Positions 209 through 14,820 of a stretch of DNA of 15,679 bases are shown in pieces. Position numbers and translations under genes: made by a program. Numbering within the stretch: position 1 is the stretch's first letter; every line of letters begins with the position of its first letter. Source of the DNA: Nitrospinota bacterium (lineage in GTDB: Bacteria > UBA8248); assembly GCA_046581755.1 (NCBI GenBank), contig JAYGFR010000325.1, positions 1 to 15,679 of the forward strand, read 5' to 3'. Under the pieces are notes generated by a model. The model saw only the letters and a list, made by a program, of their open reading frames with translations. It was not told where the DNA came from and did not search any database.

Positions 209-629
209 GTGGCCCGGATATATTTTTCCCTCGCTTATTCCGACTATAGAAATGGGACTTTGATTTACAACGCGTGCAAATACAAGCGTGCGGCAGAATC
301 CATATTTTTCGACGAATCCATCTGGAACGAAGCGCGAAAAAAGGGGATGCGGCTTCCCGGGAATTGATCGATCGCTCCGTTGAGCGTTCGGATGTGACGG
401 TTTTTCTTGTCGGGAAAAAACATACGTAAACAAATAGTGTCAATACGCTCTTCAAAAGAGCGTTAAAAATAAAAAAGGAGTATTCGGAATTTACCTCCCG
501 AATCAGATGTCTCGGGGGAAGGGAGATTGGATAACGCGCAATAATTTTCCTATCTACGAGTGGGAAAGCAACAGTTTGCACGGATGGATTATCAAGGCTA
601 TTCAGAAGTCCTTGACGAAAGCTTCCTGA
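209..629 (+). pseudogene. Disrupted TIR-like domain gene (Thoeris ThsB/DUF1863-like)
   Basis: GTG at 209 after AGGA. Joining frames across A/G runs at 337-346 and 415-420 gives MARIYFSLAYSD...FFDESIWNEARKKG/DAASRELIDRSVERSDVTVFLVGKK/TYVNK*CQYALQKSVKNKKGVFGIYLPN...PIYEWESNSLHGWIIKAIQK. This follows the ThsB-like pattern along its whole length. TAG at 435-437 sits where Trp is expected; TGA at 627-629. Confidence 0.72.
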
Positions 630-661
630 ATTCGCAGGGCGCTCTGCGCTTGCTTCAGGAA
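623..661. terminator. Hairpin over the TIR-like stop codon, possible terminator between convergent genes
   Basis: ttcctgaa (623-630) / ttcaggaa (654-661) with inner cgcag/ctgcg (633-648); no clear U-tract. Confidence 0.3.
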
Positions 662-881
662 CGAATGAGCGTATTCGGAATTTACCGTAAAATATTCTCC
701 TCGCTTTCCCGGAAATGAACTGTCTGCGGGACCGTTCCCAAACGGCATTCGGCCCCTTGGCATTGACGGTGAAAGCCGCATCCTGCCTCAAGCGGGGCAA
801 TTCCTCCCCTCGCCGGTTGGCGAAACACCCGCACAGACCGCACACTGAGCTATATCCGCCCTTCCTGGCTGGCGCGCGCGG

Positions 882-1709
882 TTATTTCGAGGGATTTATA
901 TCGATTTCCCACCCGGTGACGAACCGGATCCGGTCGGCGATTTTTTTTCGCGCTCCGGGGGCTCTTTTGTAATAAGCAACGACTTGATAGCGCTCGGCCC
1001 CATTTTTTTCGATTTCGTAAAATACGTTTTTGATGGGAACCCTTTCCTTCAGGTCCCTGAAGTGCTCCTTCGTGTACGAATAAAAACGGAATTCATAAGG
1101 AGTTAAAATCAACTTGCCCCGTTGTTTATCCAATTCGCTGGATCGGAACACGAGTTCCGGGAGGCGGGCCCCGCGGAAGGGTGTCCCGGTTAACGAGACA
1201 TATTTACTGTAGATATAGTCCACATAATCGTGGGCGCCCGGCGGAACATCCGCATCCTTGCGAATCCGGCCCGGCCCGTAATTATATGCGGCAATTCCGC
1301 GGTAAACTTCACCGTCATATCTTTTGATAAGGCTTGCCAGGTATTTCCCTCCCAGCCGGATATTCAAGCAGGGTTCAAACAAGCGGTTTCGCGACCGGAC
1401 GCCCAGTTCCTTGGTGGTCAGAGGCCAACGAATCTGCATGACGCCAATGGCATTTTTGTTGGAGACCGCCCGGGGATTAAAGTTGGATTCTCCCTTTGCA
1501 ACGGCGATCAGCAAAGATACGGGTAAATTTGTTTCTTTCGCCGTCGATAGAAAACATTCGCGAAAGGGAAATCCGCCGTTGACCGGAATGGGATGGGCGA
1601 TCATGTTTTGAACGTCGCCTTGAAGGCTGGCATGGGTTGGCCCCGGGAAAAACCCCGCCAGAATAAATATCAAAAGTGAATAGAGCGGCGCCCTACGGCA
1701 AGGGCTCAT
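882..1709 (-). CDS. Secreted SLT-domain lytic transglycosylase with a basic C-terminal (possibly SPOR-like) domain
   Basis: Signal peptide; SLT motifs AKGESNFNPRAVS (catalytic Glu), AIGVMQI and IAAYNYGPG. ATG at 1709 is preferred over the ORF-track start at 1739; it overlaps the upstream gene end by 17 nt. Confidence 0.9.
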   Translation of the reverse strand: MSPCRRAPLYSLLIFILAGFFPGPTHASLQGDVQNMIAHPIPVNGGFPFRECFLSTAKETNLPVSLLIAVAKGESNFNPRAVSNKNAIGVMQIRWPLTTKELGVRSRNRLFEPCLNIRLGGKYLASLIKRYDGEVYRGIAAYNYGPGRIRKDADVPPGAHDYVDYIYSKYVSLTGTPFRGARLPELVFRSSELDKQRGKLILTPYEFRFYSYTKEHFRDLKERVPIKNVFYEIEKNGAERYQVVAYYKRAPGARKKIADRIRFVTGWEIDINPSK

Positions 1710-2604
1710 GTTCGATTCTTCCCGTTCGGGTGATGACAAACTTCCCGGACAGATGGCGGTTCAAGGAATCGCTCAGGTTTTTTTGTATCGAGGGAGAGAG
1801 TTTTAGTTCGTACCGGTGGTCATCGCGAAGTATATTCCCCAAATATTGCATCGATGCCCGGCGAATCGCCTCCGGTATTCTTGAATTCGGCATCGTGTAC
1901 CGGGATCCCGATATGCGGTCCAGGCGGCGATAGGTCATATTTCCGTTCCGGTATTGCAATTGAAATCCGTAATCGCCGGTGAACAGGAAAATGCGCACCT
2001 TGCTGGATTCGACAAATTCGAGGAGCGTCTGTTGCGAAGCGAAGACGATATCGACCCTGGGCGGCCCTTTTCTCGATTTTTTCTCGGTCTTTTTCCTGAT
2101 CCTTTCGGGGGCTTGTGAAAAAATTCGGTTGGTTTCCAGCTTTTTTTGAATCGCTCTCAGGCGCTTTCTTCCGGCGACGTTGTTTCGTTCCAGGACTTTC
2201 ATTTTTGCTTTTAGCTGCTGGGCCTCGATCTTTTTTTGAGACAAGGCGGCCTGAAGCCGATTCGACTTGGTTTGTCTGTTCTTCAGGGTTTTTTCCATAT
2301 CCAGCAATTCTTGTATTTTTTTATTCTTTTGCCGCAAGGCTTCATTGAGGGATTCAATCACCCGCAGTTGGCTCCCGATCTCGGCGCCGATCCGAGCCAG
2401 CCTTCTTTTGAGAATTCTGTTTTCTTCGATAAGAACCGGAACCGCTTGGGTGGCCTCCCGGGGGAGGCTTTGGACGATGGGGATAAAAATGACCAAAAGA
2501 GAAAAGGCGATAATCGCCAGAAACCGCATGACGTCGGTCTGCAGCGCTTCATCGTCGCTGTTGCCGTCTACAGCATCGATATTGTCGTCATCGAATAAAG
2601 ACAC
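1693..2604 (-). CDS. Single-pass membrane protein with TM-proximal Asp and long coiled coil (MotB/ExbD/TolR-like motor partner, inferred)
   Basis: Acidic N-terminus, LQTDVMRFLAIIAFSLLVIFIPIV TM segment resembling the Asp-bearing TM of ExbD/MotB, ~110-aa K/R/E/Q coiled coil, and a C-terminal globular region with no recognisable OmpA motif. Starts 5 nt after the MotA-like gene. Confidence 0.65.
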   Translation of the reverse strand: MSLFDDDNIDAVDGNSDDEALQTDVMRFLAIIAFSLLVIFIPIVQSLPREATQAVPVLIEENRILKRRLARIGAEIGSQLRVIESLNEALRQKNKKIQELLDMEKTLKNRQTKSNRLQAALSQKKIEAQQLKAKMKVLERNNVAGRKRLRAIQKKLETNRIFSQAPERIRKKTEKKSRKGPPRVDIVFASQQTLLEFVESSKVRIFLFTGDYGFQLQYRNGNMTYRRLDRISGSRYTMPNSRIPEAIRRASMQYLGNILRDDHRYELKLSPSIQKNLSDSLNRHLSGKFVITRTGRIEHEPLP

Positions 2605-2609
2605 CGCTC

Positions 2610-3209
2610 TTACTTTCCATTGAGGTTGTTGATTCCGTCCCTGATTTCATGGAGCACCGATAATATCTCTCTATCCCGGGTCTCCCGGTTCCATTTCCGC
2701 GCCTTTTCAATCAACCTGCCCAGGGTCAAATGGCGGAGCAATCTCATGATGTACCCCCCGACTCCGCCGACAATCGTCGTGGTCAGGGCCATAATGATTC
2801 CGCCCCGTACCATCCGGTTTAATATTCCCCATGCGCCGATATCCTTGGCGGTCTCCTGGGTCAAATTACCCAACGAAGCATTCAATCCGCTTTGCATGCC
2901 GATGGCCGTGTAAATAACTCCGATTCCGAGGAAAATATTGATCGACAAATCGTTCATGCGGTACCAATACGATGAGTTTTCCGCATCTTTTTTATCGAGA
3001 CTTTTTCTGATTTGACCGAGGGAATAAAAATACAGGCATAAATCCAGGAAGAAGAATACAACCGAGGTTCCCAATATGCTCCAGACATGGTTGAGCAACA
3101 CCGAGGTGGAGGGGAACTGGTTGATGAAAACGACAAAACCACTGAAAAAAGCCAGGGCAACGATGGCGCCGGCCAGGAAAATCGACAAAAGAACAACTTT
3201 AAATCCCAC
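2610..3209 (-). CDS. MotA/TolQ/ExbB proton-channel-like membrane protein
   Basis: Four hydrophobic segments; the last two (IFLGIGVIYTAIGMQSGL and GGIIMALTTTIVGG) resemble the family GLxGTxxGM and GIxxALxTTxxG helices. GTG start with AGGA upstream. Confidence 0.72.
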   Translation of the reverse strand: MGFKVVLLSIFLAGAIVALAFFSGFVVFINQFPSTSVLLNHVWSILGTSVVFFFLDLCLYFYSLGQIRKSLDKKDAENSSYWYRMNDLSINIFLGIGVIYTAIGMQSGLNASLGNLTQETAKDIGAWGILNRMVRGGIIMALTTTIVGGVGGYIMRLLRHLTLGRLIEKARKWNRETRDREILSVLHEIRDGINNLNGK

Positions 3210-3316
3210 AGAAGTCTTCCTAAGAGAAAATTCCGCCGTTACGGATTCATCGCTGCATCAATTCACACCTTCCAAAAACGGCGCGGGAACTATTTCGGGC
3301 GAATGCGGCCCGGCAG

Positions 3317-3877
3317 CTATTTGATCGCGGTCAGGATTCCGAAAGTGCTTTTAAACTCTTTCACCCTGATTTGAAGTTGCCGAAATTCCTTTTTCAGGCC
3401 CATGACATACTCGAACCCGACTCTTTTCTTGACCATCTCCTTGTCGATTAAATTCGAGATAATTTCGGGTTTTTTTCGATAGAATGAAATCTTGCGGGAG
3501 GAACTGAACGCCACCAGGTTTTTGTCGAAATAGGTGCGGAACAAAATATTTGTTTTCTTGAACGGGATCTTATTTTCCCGGACCAATATTTCAAGAAAAT
3601 TGACGATTTTCGTCCTGTTCCGGACCCCTGGCCGATGGGCGGATACACGCAGCAGGGCTTCGAACACCCGGTCGAAGGAATTTCCGCAATTCGGCAATCG
3701 CATGGTTTTCAGGCCTTGTGAAATCCCCTTGTCGATGGAATATCCCGAAGGAATCGTGCAAGGCGGCGGAGAGGGAACCTCGACCACAGGCGGGGGAGGT
3801 TCCACGCATCCGGCAATGCCCAACGCCACCGCCGCCAAGAACAAATATTTTTTGGTGATTGATTTCGGGTTTGTCAA
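3317..3877 (-). CDS. Hypothetical lipoprotein with Pro-rich linker and basic helical domain
   Basis: TTG at 3877 follows GGAG (ORF track extends to 3952). KKYLFLAAVALGIAG-C lipobox, then VEPPPPVVEVPSPPP and two further Cys. Confidence 0.75.
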   Translation of the reverse strand: MTNPKSITKKYLFLAAVALGIAGCVEPPPPVVEVPSPPPCTIPSGYSIDKGISQGLKTMRLPNCGNSFDRVFEALLRVSAHRPGVRNRTKIVNFLEILVRENKIPFKKTNILFRTYFDKNLVAFSSSRKISFYRKKPEIISNLIDKEMVKKRVGFEYVMGLKKEFRQLQIRVKEFKSTFGILTAIK

Positions 3878-3930
3878 AACATGAACTCCATCATGAAATT
3901 TTGCTGGCCGGTCATGAATCCGGGTGGGCA

Positions 3931-4782
3931 TCAAAAGCGCTGTTTCAGCCATTTGTTGACCGTCGGGTTTTGGGGCCTGCTCGGCGGCGCGGGGGCGGAG
4001 CCCGCCGGTTCCACCTCGGCAACCTCCTCAGTGCCGAATATGACGCCCAATAGCCCCTCGAATTTTTCGACGTTCCGATCATAGTTTTTATTGAATTCCG
4101 CATCCGTTAGCGAAACAATATCGAGTTCCAGTTTTTGTTGGTTTACCTCACGGTTCAATACTCGGATCGTTTCGACCGAGTCCCTGAGGCTGGCGTAGTG
4201 CCTGGCCGTTCCCAGGATTCCCGAACTCGAGCTCCTGACCTTGAATGCCCGGACCAATCCCAGCAGCATTCTCAGCCTCCCCGCCATCCCCTTTTTCCGG
4301 CTTACTTTCCGGGAGATTTTATTCTTGGGCGATTCGCTTCCGTTAATCCGGATGTCTTCCCACATTTTTTCGACCGTCGTTTCGCTACGATACCTTATCA
4401 GATTGCCCCGGTATGAATCTGCGGCCCGCTCCAGCTTTTCCTGGAGGGCGGGAAGCTTGTCCGAAAGGGTGTCCATGAATTCCCCGTACTTCCGGACGAT
4501 CTGCTGGAGCATTTTCGCGCAGTCTTCCCCCGCGCCCTGGACACACCCGTTTTTTTTGTACGAGTCGTACATCTTCACCAGCTGTTGAAGCGGCGCGTCG
4601 ATATGTACCGCGATTTTTTTATGTTCCGCAATCGCCGCCTTGTTCAACTCCACCGAGCCCCGCGTCACCACGGGCCGGATGGGAACCTCGGCGGCATCGA
4701 GATCCGGAATCCATTCCCCCGAGAGATTCGACGCCAAAATGACGGCCGGAAATATGGCGAGCCATCTAATCATTCTTATCAT
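3931..4782 (-). CDS. Hypothetical secreted alpha-helical/coiled-coil protein
   Basis: 283-aa ORF with GGAG RBS, N-terminal signal-like segment, Cys pair (GCVQGAGEDC), heptad-rich helices and Pro-rich tail; co-oriented with its neighbours. Confidence 0.8.
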   Translation of the reverse strand: MIRMIRWLAIFPAVILASNLSGEWIPDLDAAEVPIRPVVTRGSVELNKAAIAEHKKIAVHIDAPLQQLVKMYDSYKKNGCVQGAGEDCAKMLQQIVRKYGEFMDTLSDKLPALQEKLERAADSYRGNLIRYRSETTVEKMWEDIRINGSESPKNKISRKVSRKKGMAGRLRMLLGLVRAFKVRSSSSGILGTARHYASLRDSVETIRVLNREVNQQKLELDIVSLTDAEFNKNYDRNVEKFEGLLGVIFGTEEVAEVEPAGSAPAPPSRPQNPTVNKWLKQRF

Positions 4783-5008
4783 TCCGCTCCCCTAGGCAAA
4801 CCCTTTTGAAATGGACAGCCGCGGCACGGTTCAAAATATCCTTCCGCTCACCGCGGGCTCGTTTTTTTGGCCTCTAAAAATCCTCTCCGCCAGGCTCATG
4901 GGTCCAGCCGCAACCTCTCGTTCGGTCTTTCGCATTCTAGAAATTCATCGCGGCGGGGACAACCATTGAAACCCGTACTCGAACGGCTTGGCGGAATGGA
5001 TGTATGCG

Positions 5009-6082
5009 CTAATTTGATCGGCCGCCCGACTTGCCGGAGTCCGATTTGTCCGGCGGCTGGTTTTTGTTCTTGTTTCGAATGCTCTGGACCTCGGCCCTGG
5101 GCATATTGGCCCATGCCGCGGCCATCTGGTTCATGATCTTCACCGCGATTTTCCGGCTTTCTTCGACCCCGTTGGTTTCCCGAGAGGGCGGACCGGACAT
5201 GTACGACGGCTGGGGGGAGCCAGAACCCTGCCCCGGAAAAATCGCCTCCGCTTCTTCCTTCTTATGGCTCGTTGCGATGGAAATGATCCGGCCCGTCGAT
5301 ATCTCAATGCCCTTTACGGATATCTGCCATTTTCTTTGGCCTGAATCCCAGACGAACAAAAATTCAATGATGATGTCGGCAAATTGTTTCCACGCCGAAA
5401 ATTCCACAACCCGGGAGGAATTTTTCGATGTGCTTGCGTTGGATTGAGACGCAAACGAGCGGACGGCCAAATTGGGGTCGATCAACCGAACGCCGGCTCC
5501 CAGGAAAGGCTCCGTAAAAACCTGCCGGGCTCGCAACGTGTCCCATTCCACCGGCGCGCTTCGGCGGGTTCGGGCAATCCGTACTTCTTGGGTCACCGCG
5601 CGCCGCCGGTTGAGGTCAATATTCCGGTCGAAGGAGGATTTTGTTTTTTTCAGCGAGGCCGTTTTTTTGGAATCGGGGCCTTTTTTCAGGCCGATATCTT
5701 TATTGGCATACCCGCCGGTTAGTTTCCCCTGGACAGTGTCTTTCCAAACCCACCGCCTTCCGGATCGGTAATCCTGGTATTGGCGCTCCAAAATTTCGTT
5801 GAACAAAATCATGATGCGCGGGCGCCCGGCACGGTTGTAGGCCGATAGAAATTTCGGGTCGGCGCTGGTTGCGAAACCGGGCGTGCTCGGCTCGGGCGGC
5901 GGGGCGACGGAGCGGTGGCTCAGATTCGGGCTCACGCCGCCCCCATAGGCGGCAATCCGCAGGTTTTCACGGCGATCGGAAACCTTGCTTACGGCGAGTT
6001 CCTTGGAAAACACAACCCCCGGAAAAAGAGCGATGGCCATCAGCCACACGAATTGTCTTTTACATGTTTTCCCCAAAGTCAT
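5009..6082 (-). CDS. Hypothetical secreted protein (possible CsgG/LpoB-like alpha/beta fold)
   Basis: 357-aa ORF with signal peptide and ATGA overlap with the upstream gene. PRIMILF...VRLID...ADIIIE...VKGIEISTGRIIS resembles the strand pattern of CsgG/TolB-N-like folds; fold assignment is inference. Confidence 0.75.
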   Translation of the reverse strand: MTLGKTCKRQFVWLMAIALFPGVVFSKELAVSKVSDRRENLRIAAYGGGVSPNLSHRSVAPPPEPSTPGFATSADPKFLSAYNRAGRPRIMILFNEILERQYQDYRSGRRWVWKDTVQGKLTGGYANKDIGLKKGPDSKKTASLKKTKSSFDRNIDLNRRRAVTQEVRIARTRRSAPVEWDTLRARQVFTEPFLGAGVRLIDPNLAVRSFASQSNASTSKNSSRVVEFSAWKQFADIIIEFLFVWDSGQRKWQISVKGIEISTGRIISIATSHKKEEAEAIFPGQGSGSPQPSYMSGPPSRETNGVEESRKIAVKIMNQMAAAWANMPRAEVQSIRNKNKNQPPDKSDSGKSGGRSN

Positions 6083-6501
6083 TTAATTTCCCTTACCCGA
6101 ATCGTAAATCGCCTGGCTTTTGCATTGAGCGAATTGACCACGTACGTTTTCGTCTCGTTGGGTTCGAAAATTAACCGGTGCCAGGTCGTTATGTCGTTTA
6201 CGGAAAATCCCTGCTTGTCCTTAAAAACGGTTTGAACCTCCACCTGGAGCGGTTTCTCCGTCCGGTTCCGGAGCCGGGCTTGAACCTCCAATAGATTCGC
6301 ATCGGTCCACTTGGCCCGCTGCCCCTCGACGGTGACCAGATCTCTCAGATTTCGGGTAAGGAGCACAAAGGTTTCGTCGTTCTCCACATTGGCGCCCGGA
6401 ACGCTTACCGGCCGGTATGCGCCCTCGCAACCGAAATTGAAAAAACCAAGGAGAGCCAATACAAAGATTCGATTCCGAAATATTCGCATTATGGGTCGCA
6501 T
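6079..6501 (-). CDS. YcfL/DUF1425-family lipoprotein
   Basis: Lipoprotein-type signal ending FNFG-C; LRNRTEKPLQVEVQTVFKDKQGF...W..LIFEPNE...S.NAKARRFTIRVR matches the YcfL pattern; adjacent to an LpoB-like gene, as is typical for the family. Confidence 0.8.
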   Translation of the reverse strand: MRPIMRIFRNRIFVLALLGFFNFGCEGAYRPVSVPGANVENDETFVLLTRNLRDLVTVEGQRAKWTDANLLEVQARLRNRTEKPLQVEVQTVFKDKQGFSVNDITTWHRLIFEPNETKTYVVNSLNAKARRFTIRVREIK

Positions 6502-6540
6502 CCTTAATAGTGAGGTTGCCTCGCGAAAATAGACGGCGTT

Positions 6541-7173
6541 TTATCTGTAGATGACATCGTCGAGACCTTGTTTTTTGATCTGATACAAATCTTCCCAGAC
6601 CTCGATCGACGATTCTGTATCGATCAACTTGAACGTATAGAGAATATAATCGGATACGCCCCTTCGACCCGCGGTGCTCAGGCCATCCATGCTGCCGGTG
6701 AGGAAATAATCCGCTCCGGCGACCGCTTTTCGGGTCTTGGATGCGTCAAAATCCGTCTTGCCCCGGCGTTTCAATTTTCTTTCCTGCTGAATGGCCAGAA
6801 TCTGCTCGCGGGCAAGGAAGTAAATTCGGCCGCGCGCTTTGCTGTTCAGCTTCGCTTTCATCAACTTGAGAAAAAGACTCTGGTTGATGGCAAACCGGGT
6901 ATTGTTTTTAACCGGAAGCAAGGCCACCGTGGGCGGATTCTTCGCACGCGCGATGACTGGAACGGTCAGCATGGAGCGGACCATTTTATCGGCGACGGCA
7001 TTAATGTCGTTCGACTCCACCCCAACCCCCGATATCGAACTCTGCCTGGTGGGGTCAACCCGGACCACCGGACGCCCGATTTCCACAGGGGGGGCGGCGG
7101 CGCATCCGGCGAGGGAAACGGCCAATACTCCGGTCAACAAGAATTTGCCTCGGAGTTTACATTTTCCTTGCAT
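6541..7173 (-). CDS. lpoB: LpoB-family (PBP activator-like) outer-membrane lipoprotein
   Basis: ATG at 7173 after AAGGA; lipobox LAG-C; DINAVADKMVRSML, VKNNT, AGADYFLTGSM and YTFKLIDTESSIEVW match LpoB/CsgG-superfamily lipoproteins. True orthology to lpoB is not established. Confidence 0.78.
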   Translation of the reverse strand: MQGKCKLRGKFLLTGVLAVSLAGCAAAPPVEIGRPVVRVDPTRQSSISGVGVESNDINAVADKMVRSMLTVPVIARAKNPPTVALLPVKNNTRFAINQSLFLKLMKAKLNSKARGRIYFLAREQILAIQQERKLKRRGKTDFDASKTRKAVAGADYFLTGSMDGLSTAGRRGVSDYILYTFKLIDTESSIEVWEDLYQIKKQGLDDVIYR

Positions 7174-7319
7174 GATGAAATTCCTTTTGGCTGAAAATTG
7201 AATCGGAAAATGGGGACAGACATGCAGTTGATAAAAGATGAAATTCAAAGCTCACAGTCCGCATGCTGGAAATCGGCGCGGCAACGGACTTTCATCCTAT
7301 ATTTATCCTATTTAAAAAA

Positions 7320-7368
7320 CAATCTAATTCATCGTCAATCTAAGTCATTGGGAAAAAGGCATTTAGAT
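7320..7368. promoter_or_regulatory. Candidate protein-binding site in the AT-rich region upstream of the envelope cluster
   Basis: Tandem caatctaattcatcgt / caatctaagtcattgg (7320-7351) and an inverted half-site atttagat (7361-7368). Confidence 0.3.
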
Positions 7369-7642: not shown

Positions 7643-7885
7643 GGCGCGCCACTGCCGCGCGGTGCTCGGCTACGGGTGACGCGGGGTTGCAAGCGTTGTT
7701 GAGCCCGGAGAGGGATCATTGCGCCCCGATAAGGAGAGAACCAATTATGCACCGTTATTTTGGCTGTAGGAGCCGTCTCAAAGGGATCTTTCAGTGCACT
7801 CGATGGACATCGGCGGGAGGCGGCGCCGAGGAAGGAAATTAGGCCGGATTTTGCTAAATGGAGAGCGTTGCAGCATAATTCCAGA
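7643..7885 (+). repeat. ~245-bp imperfect direct repeat, copy 1
   Basis: Aligns end to end with 8481-8731 (roughly 80% by eye). Shared blocks include tcggctacgggtga, gatcattgcgc, ctcaaagggatctttc and gattttgctaaatggagagcgttgc. Confidence 0.92.
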
Positions 7886-7930: not shown

Positions 7931-8366
7931 ATGAATGATACCGCAATCAAAGATTTGAAAATCCTCGTCGTGGAAGACGAAGAATTTATGCTCAACATGA
8001 TTGTCAGATTGTTGAAAAACTTCGATATACAGACCATTACAACCGCATTAAACGGGCAGGATGCACTTCAAGAAATGGAGGAGGCGAAAGAGAAATCCCA
8101 GCTGGAATTCGACCTTATTTTTTGTGATCTAGAGATGCCGATCATGGACGGGTTCCAGTTTTTGAAGAATCTCAGAGGCAGCGCAGACACAGGGAACCGA
8201 AATGTCCCGGTGATTATCTTGACGGGGCACGGCGATAAGGAACATTTCAGGGGAAGCGCTGGAGTTGGGGTTTCATGGATTCCTGGTCAAGCCGGTTACT
8301 CTGGAATCGCTCGAGAAAATTCTCCAAATTTGCTCGAATAAAAAATTATTTCTGTTTAAAGGATAA
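7931..8366 (+). CDS. Single-domain CheY-like response regulator, +1 frameshift at G-run 8250-8253
   Basis: ILVVEDE, IFCDLEMPIMDG, VIILTG. Removing one G restores EALELGFHGFLVKPVTLESLEKIL (conserved KP), ending at TAA 8364-8366. Confidence 0.88.
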
Positions 8367-8480: not shown

Positions 8481-8731
8481 GGCGCGCCGCTACCGGTCGG
8501 TTTTCGGCTACGGGTGATTCGGGGCCGCAAGCGGTGTTGAGTCCGGAGGAGAAAAGATCATTGCGCGCCGAAAAGGAGAAAACCGCTTATGCCCCGTGAT
8601 TTTGGCTATAGGAGCCGCCTCAAAGGGATCTTTCGGTCCACTTGATGGCAATCCCTGTGAGAGGCACTGCCCGAGGAAGGAGGATTGGGCCAGATTTTGC
8701 TAAATGGAGAGCGTTGCCGCATAAATCCGGA
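8481..8731 (+). repeat. ~250-bp imperfect direct repeat, copy 2
   Basis: Homologous to 7643-7885; both copies start at ggcgcgcc. Confidence 0.92.
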
Positions 8732-8758: not shown

Positions 8759-9454
8759 ATGCTCCGCAAGCTCGTATCTTACCCGCTAGGTTTTCTCATC
8801 TGCGCCATCGCGGCACACGAAATCTTGAACCCGACGAATATTATCGGGATGCACGCCCAGCGCCTCTTGCGGCAGACCGAAGAGGATATCCGGGAGTATA
8901 AATCGGCCGAGGTGATCCAGCGGAACGTGGAGCGGATCAACCATATTTGCGACGATCTCCGGCGGTTTTCCCGGGACGAAAAACCTCAGTTTGCGCCTTT
9001 CGATCCGGACAAGGTGGTTCGGGATTCCATCGATCTCGTTCTCCACGAACTTCGCCTGGTCAGCGTCCGTCACTCTCTGGAGCTGAACGGAGGAAATGTC
9101 CGGGTCATCGGCGATCACAATCAGATTCAGCAGGTGTTTTTCAACCTGATCGGAAACGCCCGGGACGCCATGCATTCCGGAGGCCGCCTCACCATCACGA
9201 CAAGCGAGGTATTTGAAGAGGACAAAAAATGGTGGGAGTGCCGGGTAATCGATACGGGTACCGAGATCAGCGATGAGGTGCTCCCGAAGCTGTTCGAACC
9301 GTTTTTCACGACCAAGCCCGAGGACAAGGGGACCGGGCTGGGCCTTTCGGTGACGTTTGGTATCATCGAAAGCCACGGCGGAAAAATATGGGCGGAAAGC
9401 GACGGAAAAAACGGGTCCACTTTTTATGTCCGCCTTCCGGTGGAGGAGCCCTGA
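8759..9454 (+). CDS. Histidine kinase core (HisKA + HATPase_c) without a sensor domain; possibly truncated
   Basis: H-box AHEILNP at residue ~20, N-box QVFFNLIGNARDAM, DTG, F-box LFEPFFTTK, G2 GTGLGLS. Confidence 0.88.
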   Translation: MLRKLVSYPLGFLICAIAAHEILNPTNIIGMHAQRLLRQTEEDIREYKSAEVIQRNVERINHICDDLRRFSRDEKPQFAPFDPDKVVRDSIDLVLHELRLVSVRHSLELNGGNVRVIGDHNQIQQVFFNLIGNARDAMHSGGRLTITTSEVFEEDKKWWECRVIDTGTEISDEVLPKLFEPFFTTKPEDKGTGLGLSVTFGIIESHGGKIWAESDGKNGSTFYVRLPVEEP

Positions 9455-9829
9455 ATGCCTCGAATTTTGATCGTGGACGATGAGCAGGAATTGGTTAATT
9501 TTTTGGCTGAGGAATTCAAGGACCGGGGCCTGGATGTGGATACGGCTTTGAACGGACTGGAGGCGGTGGAGAGCGTCATGGCAAAATCACCTAACATTGT
9601 TCTTCTGGATGTCCGGATGCCGGGGATGGACGGGATTGCGGCGCTGAAAAAATTCAAGGACATCAATCCGGTATTGAAGGTGGTGATGATGACGGCGTTT
9701 CAGGATGAGAAAATAATGGAGCAGGCAAGGGCTCTAGGGGCCATCGATTATATTAAAAAGCCCGTTTCGCTTGCTTATCTGGACACCGTGATCATGGGGG
9801 AAATTTCCAGTCTGCTGGATCCTCCTTAG
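9455..9829 (+). CDS. Single-domain response regulator receiver
   Basis: ILIVDDE, LLDVRMPGMDG, MMTA, YIKKP; ATG directly follows the kinase stop. Confidence 0.93.
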   Translation: MPRILIVDDEQELVNFLAEEFKDRGLDVDTALNGLEAVESVMAKSPNIVLLDVRMPGMDGIAALKKFKDINPVLKVVMMTAFQDEKIMEQARALGAIDYIKKPVSLAYLDTVIMGEISSLLDPP

Positions 9830-10191
9830 GCATTCCGCCTGCCGATGAACGAAGAGCACATAGTGCAAAAAAAAACAATAGCGCCATCTCCCGCGATATT
9901 CCCCTTTTTGCAAATGAAATATCGGGCTTTAATATTGTAATTTCCCTCCTCTAAATGGGTAATCCGGATTTGGTGCCTATCATCCATCCATGGCGCGCCG
10001 GGCCGCCCCAGCCCGCGGCTGGCCCGCGGATGGCCCGCGAAAAGGCGGCGCGTCTCCTGGATCGCCCCTTGCCGGGCGAGTATAATATCTGCCACTTTCC
10101 AATCATTCTAATGGCCGAAACGCGGATCGCCAGGGGCGAAGGATATTCGCCGCCGCCGCCGGGCGCCTAAATGGCTATGCGGGGAGAAAAA

Positions 10192-11944
10192 ATGGACCAG
10201 ACGAAGAGCGATGTCAGGGACGGGATGCAGATCGACTGGGATGTCCCCATTCCGATGGAGGACGGTATCGTCCTGCGGGCCGATGTCTACCGTCCGATTG
10301 AAGAGGGCGAATATTCGGTCATCATGACCTATGGCCCGTACGGCAAATATCTTCATTTCGAGGATTTGTACGATACCTGCTGGACGCGCATGGTCGAACA
10401 GCATCCCGACGTTCCCGCCGGCTCGACCAACAAATACCAGAATTGGGAGGTGGTCGATCCTGAAAAATGGGTGCCCGACGGATACGTAGTCGTGCGTGTC
10501 GATTCGCGGGGCTCGGGCCGCTCGCCGGGCCACGTCGATATCTGGTCGGCGCTGGAGGCGAAAGATTTTTACGAATGCATCGAGTGGGCGGCCGGCCAGC
10601 CCTGGAGCAGCGGAAAAATCGGCCTGAACGGCATCTCCTACTACGGAATGAACCAATGGCAGGTGGCCTCTCTTCAGCCGCCGCATCTGACGGCGATGTG
10701 CGTATGGGAGGGCGCGGCCGATTACTACCGCGACATGGGCCATCACGGCGGCATCTTTTGCAACGGCTTCGCCCGGGCCTGGCCCGAGATGCAGGTCTAT
10801 ACGATCCAGAACGGGCGCGGCACGCGCGGGTTCCGCAGCCGCATGAACGGCGATTGGGTTTCCGGCCCCGAAACGCTGTCCGAGGAGGAGTTGGGCGCCA
10901 ACCGCAACGATTTCGGAGAGGACGTTTTCTCGAACAAACTTGCCACCGATGAATTCTGGACATCGCGAATGCCCGATTACTCGAAAATTCAGGTGCCCCT
11001 CCTTTCATCGGCCAACTGGGGCGGCCAGGGCCTCCACCCGCGCGGCAACTTCGAGGGCCATGCCCCGTTCGGGTTCGTCCCAGAAATGGCTCGAGGTCCA
11101 CGGCATCGAACACTGGACGGAGTTTTACACCGACTACGGCGTGAACCTTCAAAAGAAATTCTTCGGCCATTTTCTCAAGGGAGAGGACACGGGATGGCAG
11201 GATCAGCCCCCGGTTCTCCTCCAGGTGCGCCATCCCGGCGAGAGGTTCGTCGAGCGCGAGGAGAACGAATGGCCGCTCGCCCGCACCCAATGGACCAAGT
11301 TCTACCCCGATCCGGCCAACAATAGCCTGACCGCTTCTCCGCCTCCCACTGCGGGAAGCGTCACCTACGCCGGGTTCGGCGAGGGCGTGACCTTTCTCAC
11401 CGGCCCGCTCGATGCGGATACCGAAATTACGGGCCCCTCGGCGGCGAAGCTGTTTGTCTCCTCCGAGACCGAGGACGCGGATTTGTTTCTCGTGTTGCGC
11501 ATCTTCACGGGCGACATGAAGGAGGTGGTCTTCCAGGGGGCCCTCGATCCGCACACCCCTATCGCCCAGGGCTGGCTCCGCGCCTCCCACCGAAAGCTCG
11601 ATCCCGCTCTCACCACCGAGATTCGCCCCTACCATATCCACGACGAGGAGCGGAAGCTGACCCCGGGCGAGGTGGTCGAGTGCGACGTGGAGGTTTGGGA
11701 TACGTGTATCGTGGTTCCGGCCGGCCACCGGATCGCGCTGACCGTGCGCGGAAAAGATTACGAATACCCCGGCGGAGCGAGCGGCGGCCTCTCGAACATG
11801 AAAAATGCGTTCACGGGTTGCGGGTGTTTCCTGCACAACGATCCGAGAGATCGGCCCGCAGATGTTTTCGGGAAAAACGTGACGCTTCACACCGGCCCCG
11901 ATCGGCCGGCCTATATCCTGCTTCCGATAGTCCCGGCGAAATAG
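10192..11944 (+). CDS. CocE/NonD-family (peptidase S15-like) serine hydrolase, paralogue 1, +1 frameshift near 11063-11066
   Basis: DGIVLRADVYRP, DSRGSGRSPG, nucleophile motif GISYYG and C-terminal TEITGP...GWLRAS. ORFs 10171-11325 and 10940-11944 join to match paralogue 2 when one C is removed. ATG at 10192 has a GGGGAG RBS. Confidence 0.9.
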
Positions 11945-11984: not shown

Positions 11985-13739
11985 ATGAGCGAGGAGAATT
12001 TTAAAAGCGATATCCGGGACGGAATGCGAATCGATTGGGACGTTCCGATTCGGATGGATGACGGCTTGATTCTCAGGGCCGATATCTACCGGCCGATCGA
12101 AGAGGGCGAGTATCCGGCCATTTTGACCTACGGGCCTTACGGCAAGTACCTGGCCTTCCAGGATGGCTATGAGGACCAATGGAACCGAATGGCCGAAATT
12201 CATCCCGACGTGGTCGCGGGCTCCACCAACAAGTACCAGAACTGGGAGGTCGCCGACCCGGAGAAATGGGTGCCGGACGGCTATGTCTGCGTGCGCGTGG
12301 ATTCACGAGGGTGCGGCCGCTCGCCGGGCTACATCGATCTCTGGTCGGCGCGGGAGACCCGGGATTTCCGCGACTGCATCGAATGGGCGGCCGGCCAGCC
12401 GTGGTGCTCGGGGAAAATTGGCCTCAGCGGAATCTCCTACTACGCCATGAACCAGTGGCAGGTGGCATCGACCCAGCCCCCTCACCTGGCGGCCATGTGC
12501 ATCTGGGAGGGGGCGGCGGATTTCTACCGGGACCTGAGCCACCACGGGGGCATCGTGAACACCTTTTGCGAGCACTGGTATGACATGCAGGTCAAGACCG
12601 TCCAACACGGTGTTGGCAATCGCAGCTACCGCAGCCGAATCGCAGCCGAATGGGTTGCCGGTCCCGATACGCAGTCCGAGGAGGAACTCGGCGCGAACCG
12701 CTCCAACTTCGGCCACGATGTCTTGTCGAATCCCCTGGACAACTGCGAGTACTGGCAGTCCCGGATGCCGGATTGGTCGAAAATTACCGTTCCCTTTCTC
12801 TCGGCGGGCAACTGGGGCGGGCAGGGGATTCACCCGCGCGGCAACGCCGAGGGCTTCGTGCGCGCCGCCTCGGCCGAAAAATGGTTCGAGATGCACGGCA
12901 TCGAACACTGGACGGAGTTTTATACCGACTACGGGGTGAACCTGCAGAAGAAATTCTTCGGCCACTTTCTCAAGGGGGAGGACACGGGTTGGAAGGATCA
13001 GCCGCCCGTCCAGCTCCAGGTCCGGCACGTGGGGGAGAGGTTCGTCGAGCGGGCCGAGAACGAATGGCCGCTCGCCCGCACCCAGTGGACAAAATTTTAT
13101 CTTCACCCCGAAGATCATAGCCTGACCGATTCCCCGCCTCCCACTGCGGGAAGCGTCACCTACGGGGCCTTCGGCGACGGCGTGACCTTTCTGACCTCGC
13201 CCTTCGGGGAGGATACTGAAATTACGGGACCCTCGGCGGCGAAGCTATTCGTCTCCTCCGAGACCGAAGATGCCGATTTGTTTCTCATCGTCCGCTTGTT
13301 CACGGGCGACCTGAAAGAGGTGGTTTTCCAGGGCGCTCTCGATCCCCACACCCCGATTGCCCAGGGCTGGCTCCGGGCCTCCCACCGAAAGCTCGACCCC
13401 AGCCTCACCGAGCCGTACCGGCCCTATCACACGCACGATGAAATACAGCCTCTGACCCCCGGGGAGGCGGCCGAACTGGACGTGGAAATCTGGGTGACGA
13501 GCATCGTCGTCCCGGCGGGCTACAGGCTGGGCCTGAGCGTGCGCGGCAAAGACTACGAATACGCCGGAGCGAGCGGAGAGGGGCTGGCCACGATGAAGAA
13601 CGAGTTCAAGGGCTGCGGTCCTTTCCTTCATAACGATCCGCGCGACCGTCCGGCGGAAGTCTTTGGCGGCAACGTGACGATTCACACGGGTCCCGGCAAC
13701 CCTTCCTATCTGCTTTTGCCGGTCATCCCGCCGAAATAG
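11985..13739 (+). CDS. CocE/NonD-family serine hydrolase, paralogue 2 (intact, 584 aa)
   Basis: DGLILRADIYRP, DSRGCGRSPG, GISYYA, TEITGP, GWLRASHR and SYLLLPVIP end; GAGGT RBS. Confidence 0.95.
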   Translation: MSEENFKSDIRDGMRIDWDVPIRMDDGLILRADIYRPIEEGEYPAILTYGPYGKYLAFQDGYEDQWNRMAEIHPDVVAGSTNKYQNWEVADPEKWVPDGYVCVRVDSRGCGRSPGYIDLWSARETRDFRDCIEWAAGQPWCSGKIGLSGISYYAMNQWQVASTQPPHLAAMCIWEGAADFYRDLSHHGGIVNTFCEHWYDMQVKTVQHGVGNRSYRSRIAAEWVAGPDTQSEEELGANRSNFGHDVLSNPLDNCEYWQSRMPDWSKITVPFLSAGNWGGQGIHPRGNAEGFVRAASAEKWFEMHGIEHWTEFYTDYGVNLQKKFFGHFLKGEDTGWKDQPPVQLQVRHVGERFVERAENEWPLARTQWTKFYLHPEDHSLTDSPPPTAGSVTYGAFGDGVTFLTSPFGEDTEITGPSAAKLFVSSETEDADLFLIVRLFTGDLKEVVFQGALDPHTPIAQGWLRASHRKLDPSLTEPYRPYHTHDEIQPLTPGEAAELDVEIWVTSIVVPAGYRLGLSVRGKDYEYAGASGEGLATMKNEFKGCGPFLHNDPRDRPAEVFGGNVTIHTGPGNPSYLLLPVIPPK

Positions 13740-14013: not shown

Positions 14014-14820
14014 GTGAACATGCTTCACATGGTCTATCACTACTACAAAGGCCGGTTCAGCCAGTCCGAGATCGACGTGGTGACCGAGATTCCGTTCCGG
14101 ATCATGGTGGATGGCGTGGAACTGGCCACCATGATGTGCACCCCGGTCAAACTTCGCGAGTTGGCGCTGGGTTTCCTCGCCTTCGAGCGCATTATCGAAT
14201 CGATGGACGACGTGGTGAGCGTCGAGGTGGATGAGGATGAGTCCGATGCCTACGTTCAGTTGAAAAAGCCGCTGAAAATAATCGAGCGCCGCATATTCAC
14301 CTCGGGATGCGGAGGCGGCGTCACGTTTCACCTCGATTACCACGACTATCCGCCCGTTCGGACCGAACGCACGCTCGACCCGAAGACCGTTCCCTCCCTG
14401 ATTCAAGACCTTCACGATGCCGCGGTGCTGTACCACCAGTCCCGTGGAATTCACACGGCCGCCCTCTCCGACGGCGAAAAGCTCATCGCCGTGGCCGAGG
14501 ATGTGGGCCGCCACAATGCGCTCGATAAATTGCGGGGAGAGACCCTGGAGCGGGGGATCGACACGAGGGACCATATTTTGATCAGCACCGGGCGCATCTC
14601 CTCGGACATGCTCCGCAAGGCGGCGCGCATGAACACGCCTTTTGTGATCTCCCGGACCTCGCCGACGAGCCTTTCGATTTATGTGGCGAAGCGGCTCGGA
14701 ATCACGCTCATCGGCTATGTCCGCCGCGATAAATTCAACGTCTACTCTCACCCCGAAAACCTGGCCTCCCGGATGGAGGCCGTGGTGGAGCGGGCCTGGA
14801 ACAGCGTCTCGTCCACCTGA
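14014..14820 (+). CDS. fdhD: Formate dehydrogenase accessory sulfurtransferase FdhD
   Basis: TMMCTP...ELALGFL, TSGCG, GIHTAAL, EDVGRHNALDKL, TGRISSDM, SRTSPTSL, TLIGYVR and YSHPE are all FdhD family motifs. Confidence 0.95.
   Translation: MNMLHMVYHYYKGRFSQSEIDVVTEIPFRIMVDGVELATMMCTPVKLRELALGFLAFERIIESMDDVVSVEVDEDESDAYVQLKKPLKIIERRIFTSGCGGGVTFHLDYHDYPPVRTERTLDPKTVPSLIQDLHDAAVLYHQSRGIHTAALSDGEKLIAVAEDVGRHNALDKLRGETLERGIDTRDHILISTGRISSDMLRKAARMNTPFVISRTSPTSLSIYVAKRLGITLIGYVRRDKFNVYSHPENLASRMEAVVERAWNSVSST

Follow-up and report, generated by a model that had tools for sequence, protein, structure and literature searches.

A conserved envelope operon with a candidate motor pair, joined to a lipoprotein module in a Nitrospinota contig

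Gene content and modules of the cluster

The window analysed here is a contig of 15,679 nucleotides (JAYGFR010000325.1) from a Nitrospinota bacterium, and it carries eight open reading frames (ORFs) on the minus strand at 882..7173, where a preliminary description made from the sequence had placed eight envelope genes of the same direction. The genes are numbered in transcription order, from G1 (6541-7173) to G8 (882-1709), and form two modules, G1-G3 and G4-G8, joined at a 226-bp gap. G4-G8 are a conserved, unnamed operon common in sediment bacteria, which includes a putative ion-driven motor pair and a lytic transglycosylase.

6541..7173, minus strand: G1, lipoprotein of the LpoB/CsgG fold family (PF13036, E 7.7e-18); module A, accessory here
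6079..6501, minus strand: G2, YcfL-like (DUF1425) putative lipoprotein (PF07233, E 4.5e-11); module A
5009..6082, minus strand: G3, exported protein without a Pfam family, possibly LpoB/DUF6175-like; module A
4783..5008: junction of module A (G1-G3) and module B (G4-G8), 226-bp gap
3931..4782, minus strand: G4, a secreted protein that is probably helical and has two invariant Cys residues; core
3317..3877, minus strand: G5, Cys-rich lipoprotein outside known families; core
2610..3209, minus strand: G6, divergent motor A subunit, probably of the MotA/ExbB/TolQ/ZorA type; core
1693..2604, minus strand: G7, probable motor B subunit with a fused arm; core
882..1709, minus strand: G8, exported SLT lytic transglycosylase (PF01464, E 5.2e-26) with a C-terminal f7-type (SPOR-like) domain; core

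Intergenic distances are 39 bp for G1-G2, -4 for G2-G3, 5 for G6-G7 and -17 for G7-G8, and the 226-bp and 107-bp gaps lie, as first described, between G3 and G4 and between G5 and G6. The longest G5 ORF reaches 3952, and its likely start is a TTG with GGAG 8 nt upstream. Lipoboxes are present in G1 (LAGC) and G5 (IAGC), G2 carries a non-standard FNFGC, and signal-like N-termini were judged by eye in G3, G4 and G8. Hydrophobic stretches number four in G6 and one in G7. Misassembly of the cluster was ruled out by contigs from two other runs: a 7,242-nt contig of another seawater run covers window positions 500-7351 with 36 differences and no gaps, spanning all eight genes, and a contig of the second run also bridges the G3-G4 gap. 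A promoter-like site in that gap (4962-4934) is within chance, with 7 such sites found against 6.0 +/- 2.6 expected.

A Pfam scan of the eight proteins gave families for G1, G2 and G8 alone, and G3-G7 had no match above cut-off. Scans of Pfam, NCBIfam and PADLOC agreed with the preliminary description that no TonB, TolA, TolB, Pal, flagellar, ZorC/D/E or PBP1B gene is among the eight.

The same description had regarded all eight genes as one machine, and this does not apply generally. Narrow profiles of G1-G3 matched at none of the 166 distinct genome loci of the core (see below), single-sequence searches matched at none of 80 metagenome loci, mostly short ones, and G1-G3 genes occur without a motor in two genomes of the host family. 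In one of these (G006) the order is G1-G2-G3 followed by a TPR-SLT gene, with the G1 orthologue adjoining G2 and G3 and the G2 orthologue matching at E 3.7e-52, and in the other (G005) G3 is followed by TPR-SLT; no G6 or G4 match was found in G006 and G005, which are 95% and 87% complete. Among 50 other genomes of the phylum, two had a G3 homologue, and the proteins that share a 90% cluster with a close relative of G3 carry the label Nitrospinota. In the window, therefore, a lipoprotein module of the host family has been joined to the motor core. At the G006 locus (L169 (C155), 549-6018), which has no motor, the opposite strand carries genes for a TPR protein and a glycine-zipper lipoprotein that face G1-G2-G3-TPR/SLT.

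Module A is like the LpoB-YcfL lipoprotein module in that G1 belongs to PF13036, G2 to PF07233, and their genes are adjacent. It is unlike it in that G1 scores 56 bits against the NCBIfam LpoB equivalog (TIGR02722), below the cut-off of 110.55, the one UB2H-domain protein of the host genome is encoded on another contig than the cluster, and the relatives add G3 and a TPR-SLT. G3 has no PDB match, and its Atlas neighbours (unnamed clusters at 0.95-0.96, DUF6175 at 0.89 and an LpoB-17% cluster at 0.87) are leads only. LpoB-family lipoproteins are sometimes found near the core: among 68 hand-picked neighbours, Pfam LpoB was matched at L245 and a CsgG/LpoB-TPR protein at L237. G1-G3 possibly fill the lipoprotein slot of the core in this lineage. 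They may serve the motor here: each module elsewhere carries what the other supplies, the SLT in one case and extra lipoproteins in the other, which is suggestive, but f3, the extra lipoprotein of most core operons (see below), has no significant similarity to G1 or G3.

The core operon and its distribution

At the 50%-cluster level, 179 relatives of G6 were found. A profile from an alignment of 124 of these plus G6 matched 367-370 times in species genomes and no fewer than 532 times in metagenomes. The profile had no match in viral contigs, and one G6 homologue had none in plasmids. The 215 genome loci examined reduced to 166 distinct ones, and 76 loci were well flanked (at least 5 kb upstream and at least 6 kb downstream). 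At these 76, using core profiles that were built on the first 80 loci and are partly circular for those rows, we found G7 in 76, G5 in 76, G4 in 73, an SLT in 71, and two further families, f3 and f7, in 70 and 56. The f3 family is a lipoprotein of ~490 aa, with DUF4384 in 13 of 48 members and no significant similarity to G1 or G3, and f7 consists of a transmembrane (TM) segment, a linker and a small SPOR-like domain. Neither was found in the host genome with profiles and a search of its own genome.

The usual order, G4-G5-G6-G7-f3-f7-SLT, occurs at 48 of the 76 loci. Halieaceae have f3 and a fused f7-SLT moved to the front, and the order in Desulfobacter differs again. G7 directly follows G6 at 152 of 153 loci, and loci without a G4 match hold a probable divergent G4 (hhalign 52%, E 1.4e-4). 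A divergent subtype (L241-L251) lacks f3; its G4 is divergent, G6 is preceded by an unrelated TM protein and G7 is mostly proline-rich. Its downstream lipoproteins include DUF6844, LpoB (L245), and vWA and tubulin-like proteins (L242). At L283 (9965-11297) G5 comes after G6, there is no recognisable G7 and the locus ends soon after, and at L256 (1-543) an unrelated gene follows G6 in place of a recognisable G7.

By record names, the carriers are mostly Gammaproteobacteria and Desulfobacterota, and they include the named organisms Desulfobacter latus AcRS2 and Ca. Litorirhabdus singularis IMCC14734, which make the core family testable. In the family of a Woeseiaceae record, 67 of 151 genomes (~45%) have a strong G6 match and one has a weak match, nearly always single. 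In the host phylum the G6 family is present in 1 of 51 genomes, the window's own. The host genome is 4.2 Mb with 60% GC, and the eight genes have 48-56% GC, with G5-G8 at 48-51%. This single occurrence among the 51 genomes, together with the lower GC, suggests that the core was acquired. The preliminary description had raised the recurrence of the set across phyla; G4-G8 do recur in this way and G1-G3 do not (0 of 166 loci).

A glycine-zipper/YcfJ-like family is present at 56 of the 166 loci, and the core often has two-component or sigma/anti-sigma genes as neighbours. In a Desulfobacterales group (L008, L018, L022, L031, L051, L058 and L116) a sigma-70-like/anti-sigma-like pair is found on one side of the core and an array of genes for caspase-DUF4384 and TPR-OmpA proteins on the other. 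The window itself encodes a response regulator (7931-8341), a sensor-less histidine kinase (8759-9454) and a second receiver (9455-9829), all on the plus strand and transcribed away from the cluster.

G4 is the most conserved core family, with a mean column identity of 56% and invariant C80 and C88, and its homologues comprise 1,697 unnamed clusters. The G5 family also has invariant Cys residues, and neither G4 nor G5 has a PDB sequence match. In G8 the catalytic Glu is E74, and Glu was present in 112 of 126 family members, the other 14 not being parsed. The C-terminal 70 residues of G8 share homology with the end domain of f7 (hhalign 97.6%, E 3e-12). This domain is SPOR-like by eye; PF05036 was found in 3 of 32 f7 members (best E 0.015), and a single SPOR seed gave no match. 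FtsN, DamX and DedD have the layout TM-linker-SPOR, like f7. The domain layout of G8 resembles that of RlpA, a lytic transglycosylase with a SPOR domain (PMC6895207). Unlike in these proteins, the catalytic domain of G8 is an SLT and the SPOR identity is weakly supported.

The putative motor pair and known motor systems

Ion-driven 5:2 motors are the power source for motility and uptake as well as for outer-membrane upkeep and phage defence, and new couplings of such motors have revealed new biology. G6 does not match PF01618 (MotA/ExbB), although this is the commonest family among its relatives (6 of 124 members at E 0.1 or better, best 0.0028). Its named Atlas neighbours are MotA/ExbB (0.81) and ZorA-like (0.78). 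In Foldseek searches with the G6 model (pLDDT 93), 10 of the top 12 rows were TolQ, ZorA or ExbB, with a best E of 0.27, and hhalign against 27 canonical A subunits gave E 0.0016, pairing GVIwTAIGM with the canonical G.lGTV.Gm and ALSTT with ALiTT. The motor identity of G6 thus rests on converging weak evidence, with no significant family match.

The conserved residue pattern is the stronger argument than the fold and profile matches. T101 of G6 is invariant in the alignment and T145 is conserved in at least 90% of sequences; by motif they are present at 166 of 166 and 159 of 166 loci. Asp24 of G7 is invariant in 68 sequences, at the start of the single TM helix, and of 162 ORFs examined for the motif 157 have it, the exceptions comprising four fragments and an LQVD variant. 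A Thr/Thr/Asp triad is essential in ZorAB, according to PMC11946911. Two results weigh against the motor assignment: VIA-align places generic bundles above motor folds for G6, and the G7 TM profile was unmatched to nine canonical B segments. We consider it very probable that G6 and G7 are a working 5:2-type motor pair. The opposing explanation, that they are a non-energised membrane anchor for a scaffold of wall enzymes, is improbable. Each structural and profile match is individually non-significant, as an anchor would allow, but the Thr and Asp residues are invariant at the expected helix positions over 124-166 sequences that are otherwise ~25-45% identical, and the A-then-B gene order is fixed.

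In the G7 model, a TM helix (16-45) is followed by an unbroken helix of ~105 residues (56-160), and then come a flexible linker and an alpha/beta domain (184-300). The spacer, coiled-coil or proline-rich, measures 41-302 aa among 137 homologues, of which 63 have a proline-rich spacer, 53 a proline-poor one and 21 an intermediate one. Domain II of TolA and TonB likewise interchanges helical and proline-rich forms, as reported in PMC12204202, and because the variation in G7 mirrors this, its spacer is probably a reach element. The end domain had no fold match and no vWA row in searches in which it was not folded alone, and Pfam found no vWA, OmpA-like or ExbD-domain match in G7. It is probable that G7 is motor B subunit and force-transducing arm in a single chain. 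It would then be a second case of a motor subunit serving as its own force transducer.

The first such case, the TPH-vWA (trans-pore helix) transducers, are vWA-ended and paired, with TolQ-like partners, and their function is given as unknown (PMC12204202). Like them, the core has a TolQ-like gene followed by an Asp-bearing trans-pore helix fused to a periplasmic extension, and a separate ExbD/TolR and the SHLS motif are missing. It is unlike them in that the G7 end domain has no vWA match, a single B gene stands in place of heterologous pairs, the A subunit lies outside PF01618, and the partners are fixed (G4, G5, f3, f7, SLT). The terms transglycosylase and SPOR do not occur in the main text or supplement of that paper, nor does DUF4384 in the supplement.

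TolQR-TolA and ExbBD-TonB share with the core the top G6 Foldseek rows, the Thr/Thr/Asp positions, a helical or proline-rich periplasmic spacer and a small cytoplasmic part, whereas the core spacer sits on the B subunit and there is no ExbD-domain match. The SxxxH motif was found in 0 of 80 f7 TM segments and 5 of 158 G7 segments, and no TolB, Pal or TonB-dependent receptor is among the recurring families at the loci, which places the core outside Ton and Tol-Pal. MotAB/PomAB also have four hydrophobic segments in A and an Asp starting the B helix. The TM2-TM3 loop of the G6 family is short (~25 residues), as is its cytoplasmic tail (median 54 aa in 158 sequences), so that G6 lacks both the flagellar torque interface (as described in PMC12505986) and the ZorA tail. 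G7 has no OmpA-like domain, and the core is present independently of FliG: in the 151 related genomes, which as kin are not independent, 34 have operon and FliG, 33 the operon only, 47 FliG only and 37 neither. Flagellar motility is disfavoured by the missing torque and OmpA domains and by the 33 of 67 carriers without a FliG match. Besides a canonical MotA-type gene in its start region, host contig C148 has genes for a coiled-coil OmpA/MotB-like protein and for an SLT.

ZorAB of Zorya shows a weak fold resemblance in the A membrane part and has the same ion-site triad, and is unlike in its long cytoplasmic tail, its OmpA-like peptidoglycan-binding domain and ZorC/D/E, and the core lies outside defence islands. 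The core has the Thr pair and the downstream Asp-helix B gene of the 5:2 clan but not the PF01618 match. It would work like a 5:2 motor system and falls outside Mot, Ton/Tol and Zorya by the features of each. In NCBIfam no model was above cut-off for 26 core proteins, which with the Pfam results leaves the core family invisible to both databases; homologues are called hypothetical wherever named, one automatic label aside, and a literature search, with most subscription papers outside its scope, found no description of the operon. The central idea of the preliminary description, a motor-like pair with its own lytic transglycosylase that recurs across phyla and fits no described system, has stood up. 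Such an operon would be a hard-wired link between a motor of this kind and a wall-cutting enzyme.

Possible functions and surroundings of the cluster

We favour, at a probability of about 0.47, a reading of G4-G8 as a 5:2-type motor system that remodels the wall or envelope; given the motor, remodelling has slightly better than even odds of being its function. The data show the conservation of the operon and of its Thr and Asp residues, the layout of the G7 arm and the family of the SLT; the assembly, ion flow, partners and function that we infer are as follows. Five G6 subunits would form an inner-membrane ring round two G7 helices, and ion flow past Asp24 of G7, lined by Thr101 and Thr145 of G6, would turn the ring against the G7 dimer. 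Because G7 brings its own periplasm-spanning spacer and end domain, no TonB or TolA would be needed. Work would be delivered outward, not to a cytoplasmic rotor or effector, and the G7 end domain would act on a periplasmic or outer-membrane scaffold of G4, the lipoprotein G5 and, in most relatives, f3. The scaffold may act at wall sites cut by the SLT, with the SPOR-like domains of G8 and f7 targeting glycan strands. The most likely task would be to remodel wall or envelope locally, for repair or to tether the outer membrane to the wall, as an accessory to Tol-Pal. Every recurring core partner is an envelope protein, and remodelling is favoured because no cytoplasmic effector, beta-barrel, secretin, ATPase or cargo recurs in the loci and because the neighbours include glycine-zipper, two-component and sigma/anti-sigma genes.

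Dedicated SLTs accompany trans-envelope machines, and G8 gives scores below the cut-off with the IagB and flagellar SLT models. Motor-driven export or surface assembly would have the SLT open the wall, G5 and f3 (or G1-G3) form an outer-membrane scaffold, and the motor push or assemble G4 as cargo, filament or helical pore. This is rather unlikely, although G4 is a secreted protein whose gene opens the operon and whose family is the most conserved, a divergent G4 has a weak SseC-like match (E 1.9e-4, below cut-off), G1 has a weak CsgG match in Pfam, and Desulfobacterota loci lie amid arrays of exported caspase/DUF4384, TPR-OmpA, FlgT_N and CsgG-like proteins. The missing barrel, secretin and ATPase count against it, as do the lack of a recurrent variable cargo or immunity gene next to the core and the absence from G4 of any stretch above the hydropathy threshold. 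A wider proposal is that G4-G8, with f3 and f7, are an undescribed trans-envelope machine to be set beside Mot, Ton, Tol, Agl and Zorya, in which the B subunit serves as a periplasmic shaft, driven directly and ending in a new fold, that exports or assembles G4 through an SLT-made hole in the wall. We hold this possible but doubtful; if true, abundant bacteria of marine sediment, such as Woeseiaceae and Desulfobacterales, would have a new secretion or surface apparatus.

A motor for surface motility or adhesion like the myxobacterial Agl-Glt, with a lytic transglycosylase coupling motor to wall, has a precedent in AgmT (PMC11444678). The carrier records are largely metagenome-assembled genomes from sediment, and a proline-rich G7 has weak scores with the TonB and GltJ models, a similarity that is compositional only. 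A Glt-like barrel, an FHA/TPR platform and an adhesin are missing from the core, however, and operon presence is unrelated to flagellar (FliG) presence in the 151 genomes, which leaves such a motor with slim chances. Phage sensing, among the roles first proposed, is now disfavoured, and a Zorya-like sensor is the least probable of these alternatives. ZorA is among the top fold matches of G6, the distribution is patchy and the GC of G5-G8 is below that of the host, but PADLOC gave only weak matches for the eight proteins, to the long helix of G7 and none better than E 0.004. There is also no long ZorA tail, no OmpA-like match in G7 and no recurring nuclease or helicase effector. PADLOC at 1e-20 matched 4 of 119 sampled neighbours (323 eligible), two of them sharing one locus, flanking genes recur within lineages, and no match was found in viral contigs or, for one G6 homologue, in plasmids.

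Elsewhere in the window, a ~240-bp intergenic repeat is present in two copies (7643-7885 and 8481-8731, 81% identical) upstream of the response-regulator and kinase genes. It has 26 blastn matches on 25 host contigs and is possibly a miniature inverted-repeat transposable element or a repetitive extragenic palindromic-like element. The contig end (1-141) is a repeat; stretches on four other contigs match it at 98-100% identity, three of these at or close to the start of their contig, and three further contigs hold partial copies. The repeat is probably an insertion-sequence end that broke the assembly. Two similar genes in tandem on the plus strand (10171-11944, split over two frames near 11050-11300, and 11985-13739, intact) encode what we take to be CocE/NonD-type hydrolases, and the plus-strand gene at 14014-14820 presumably encodes an FdhD-like sulfurtransferase, judging by the appearance of its sequence.

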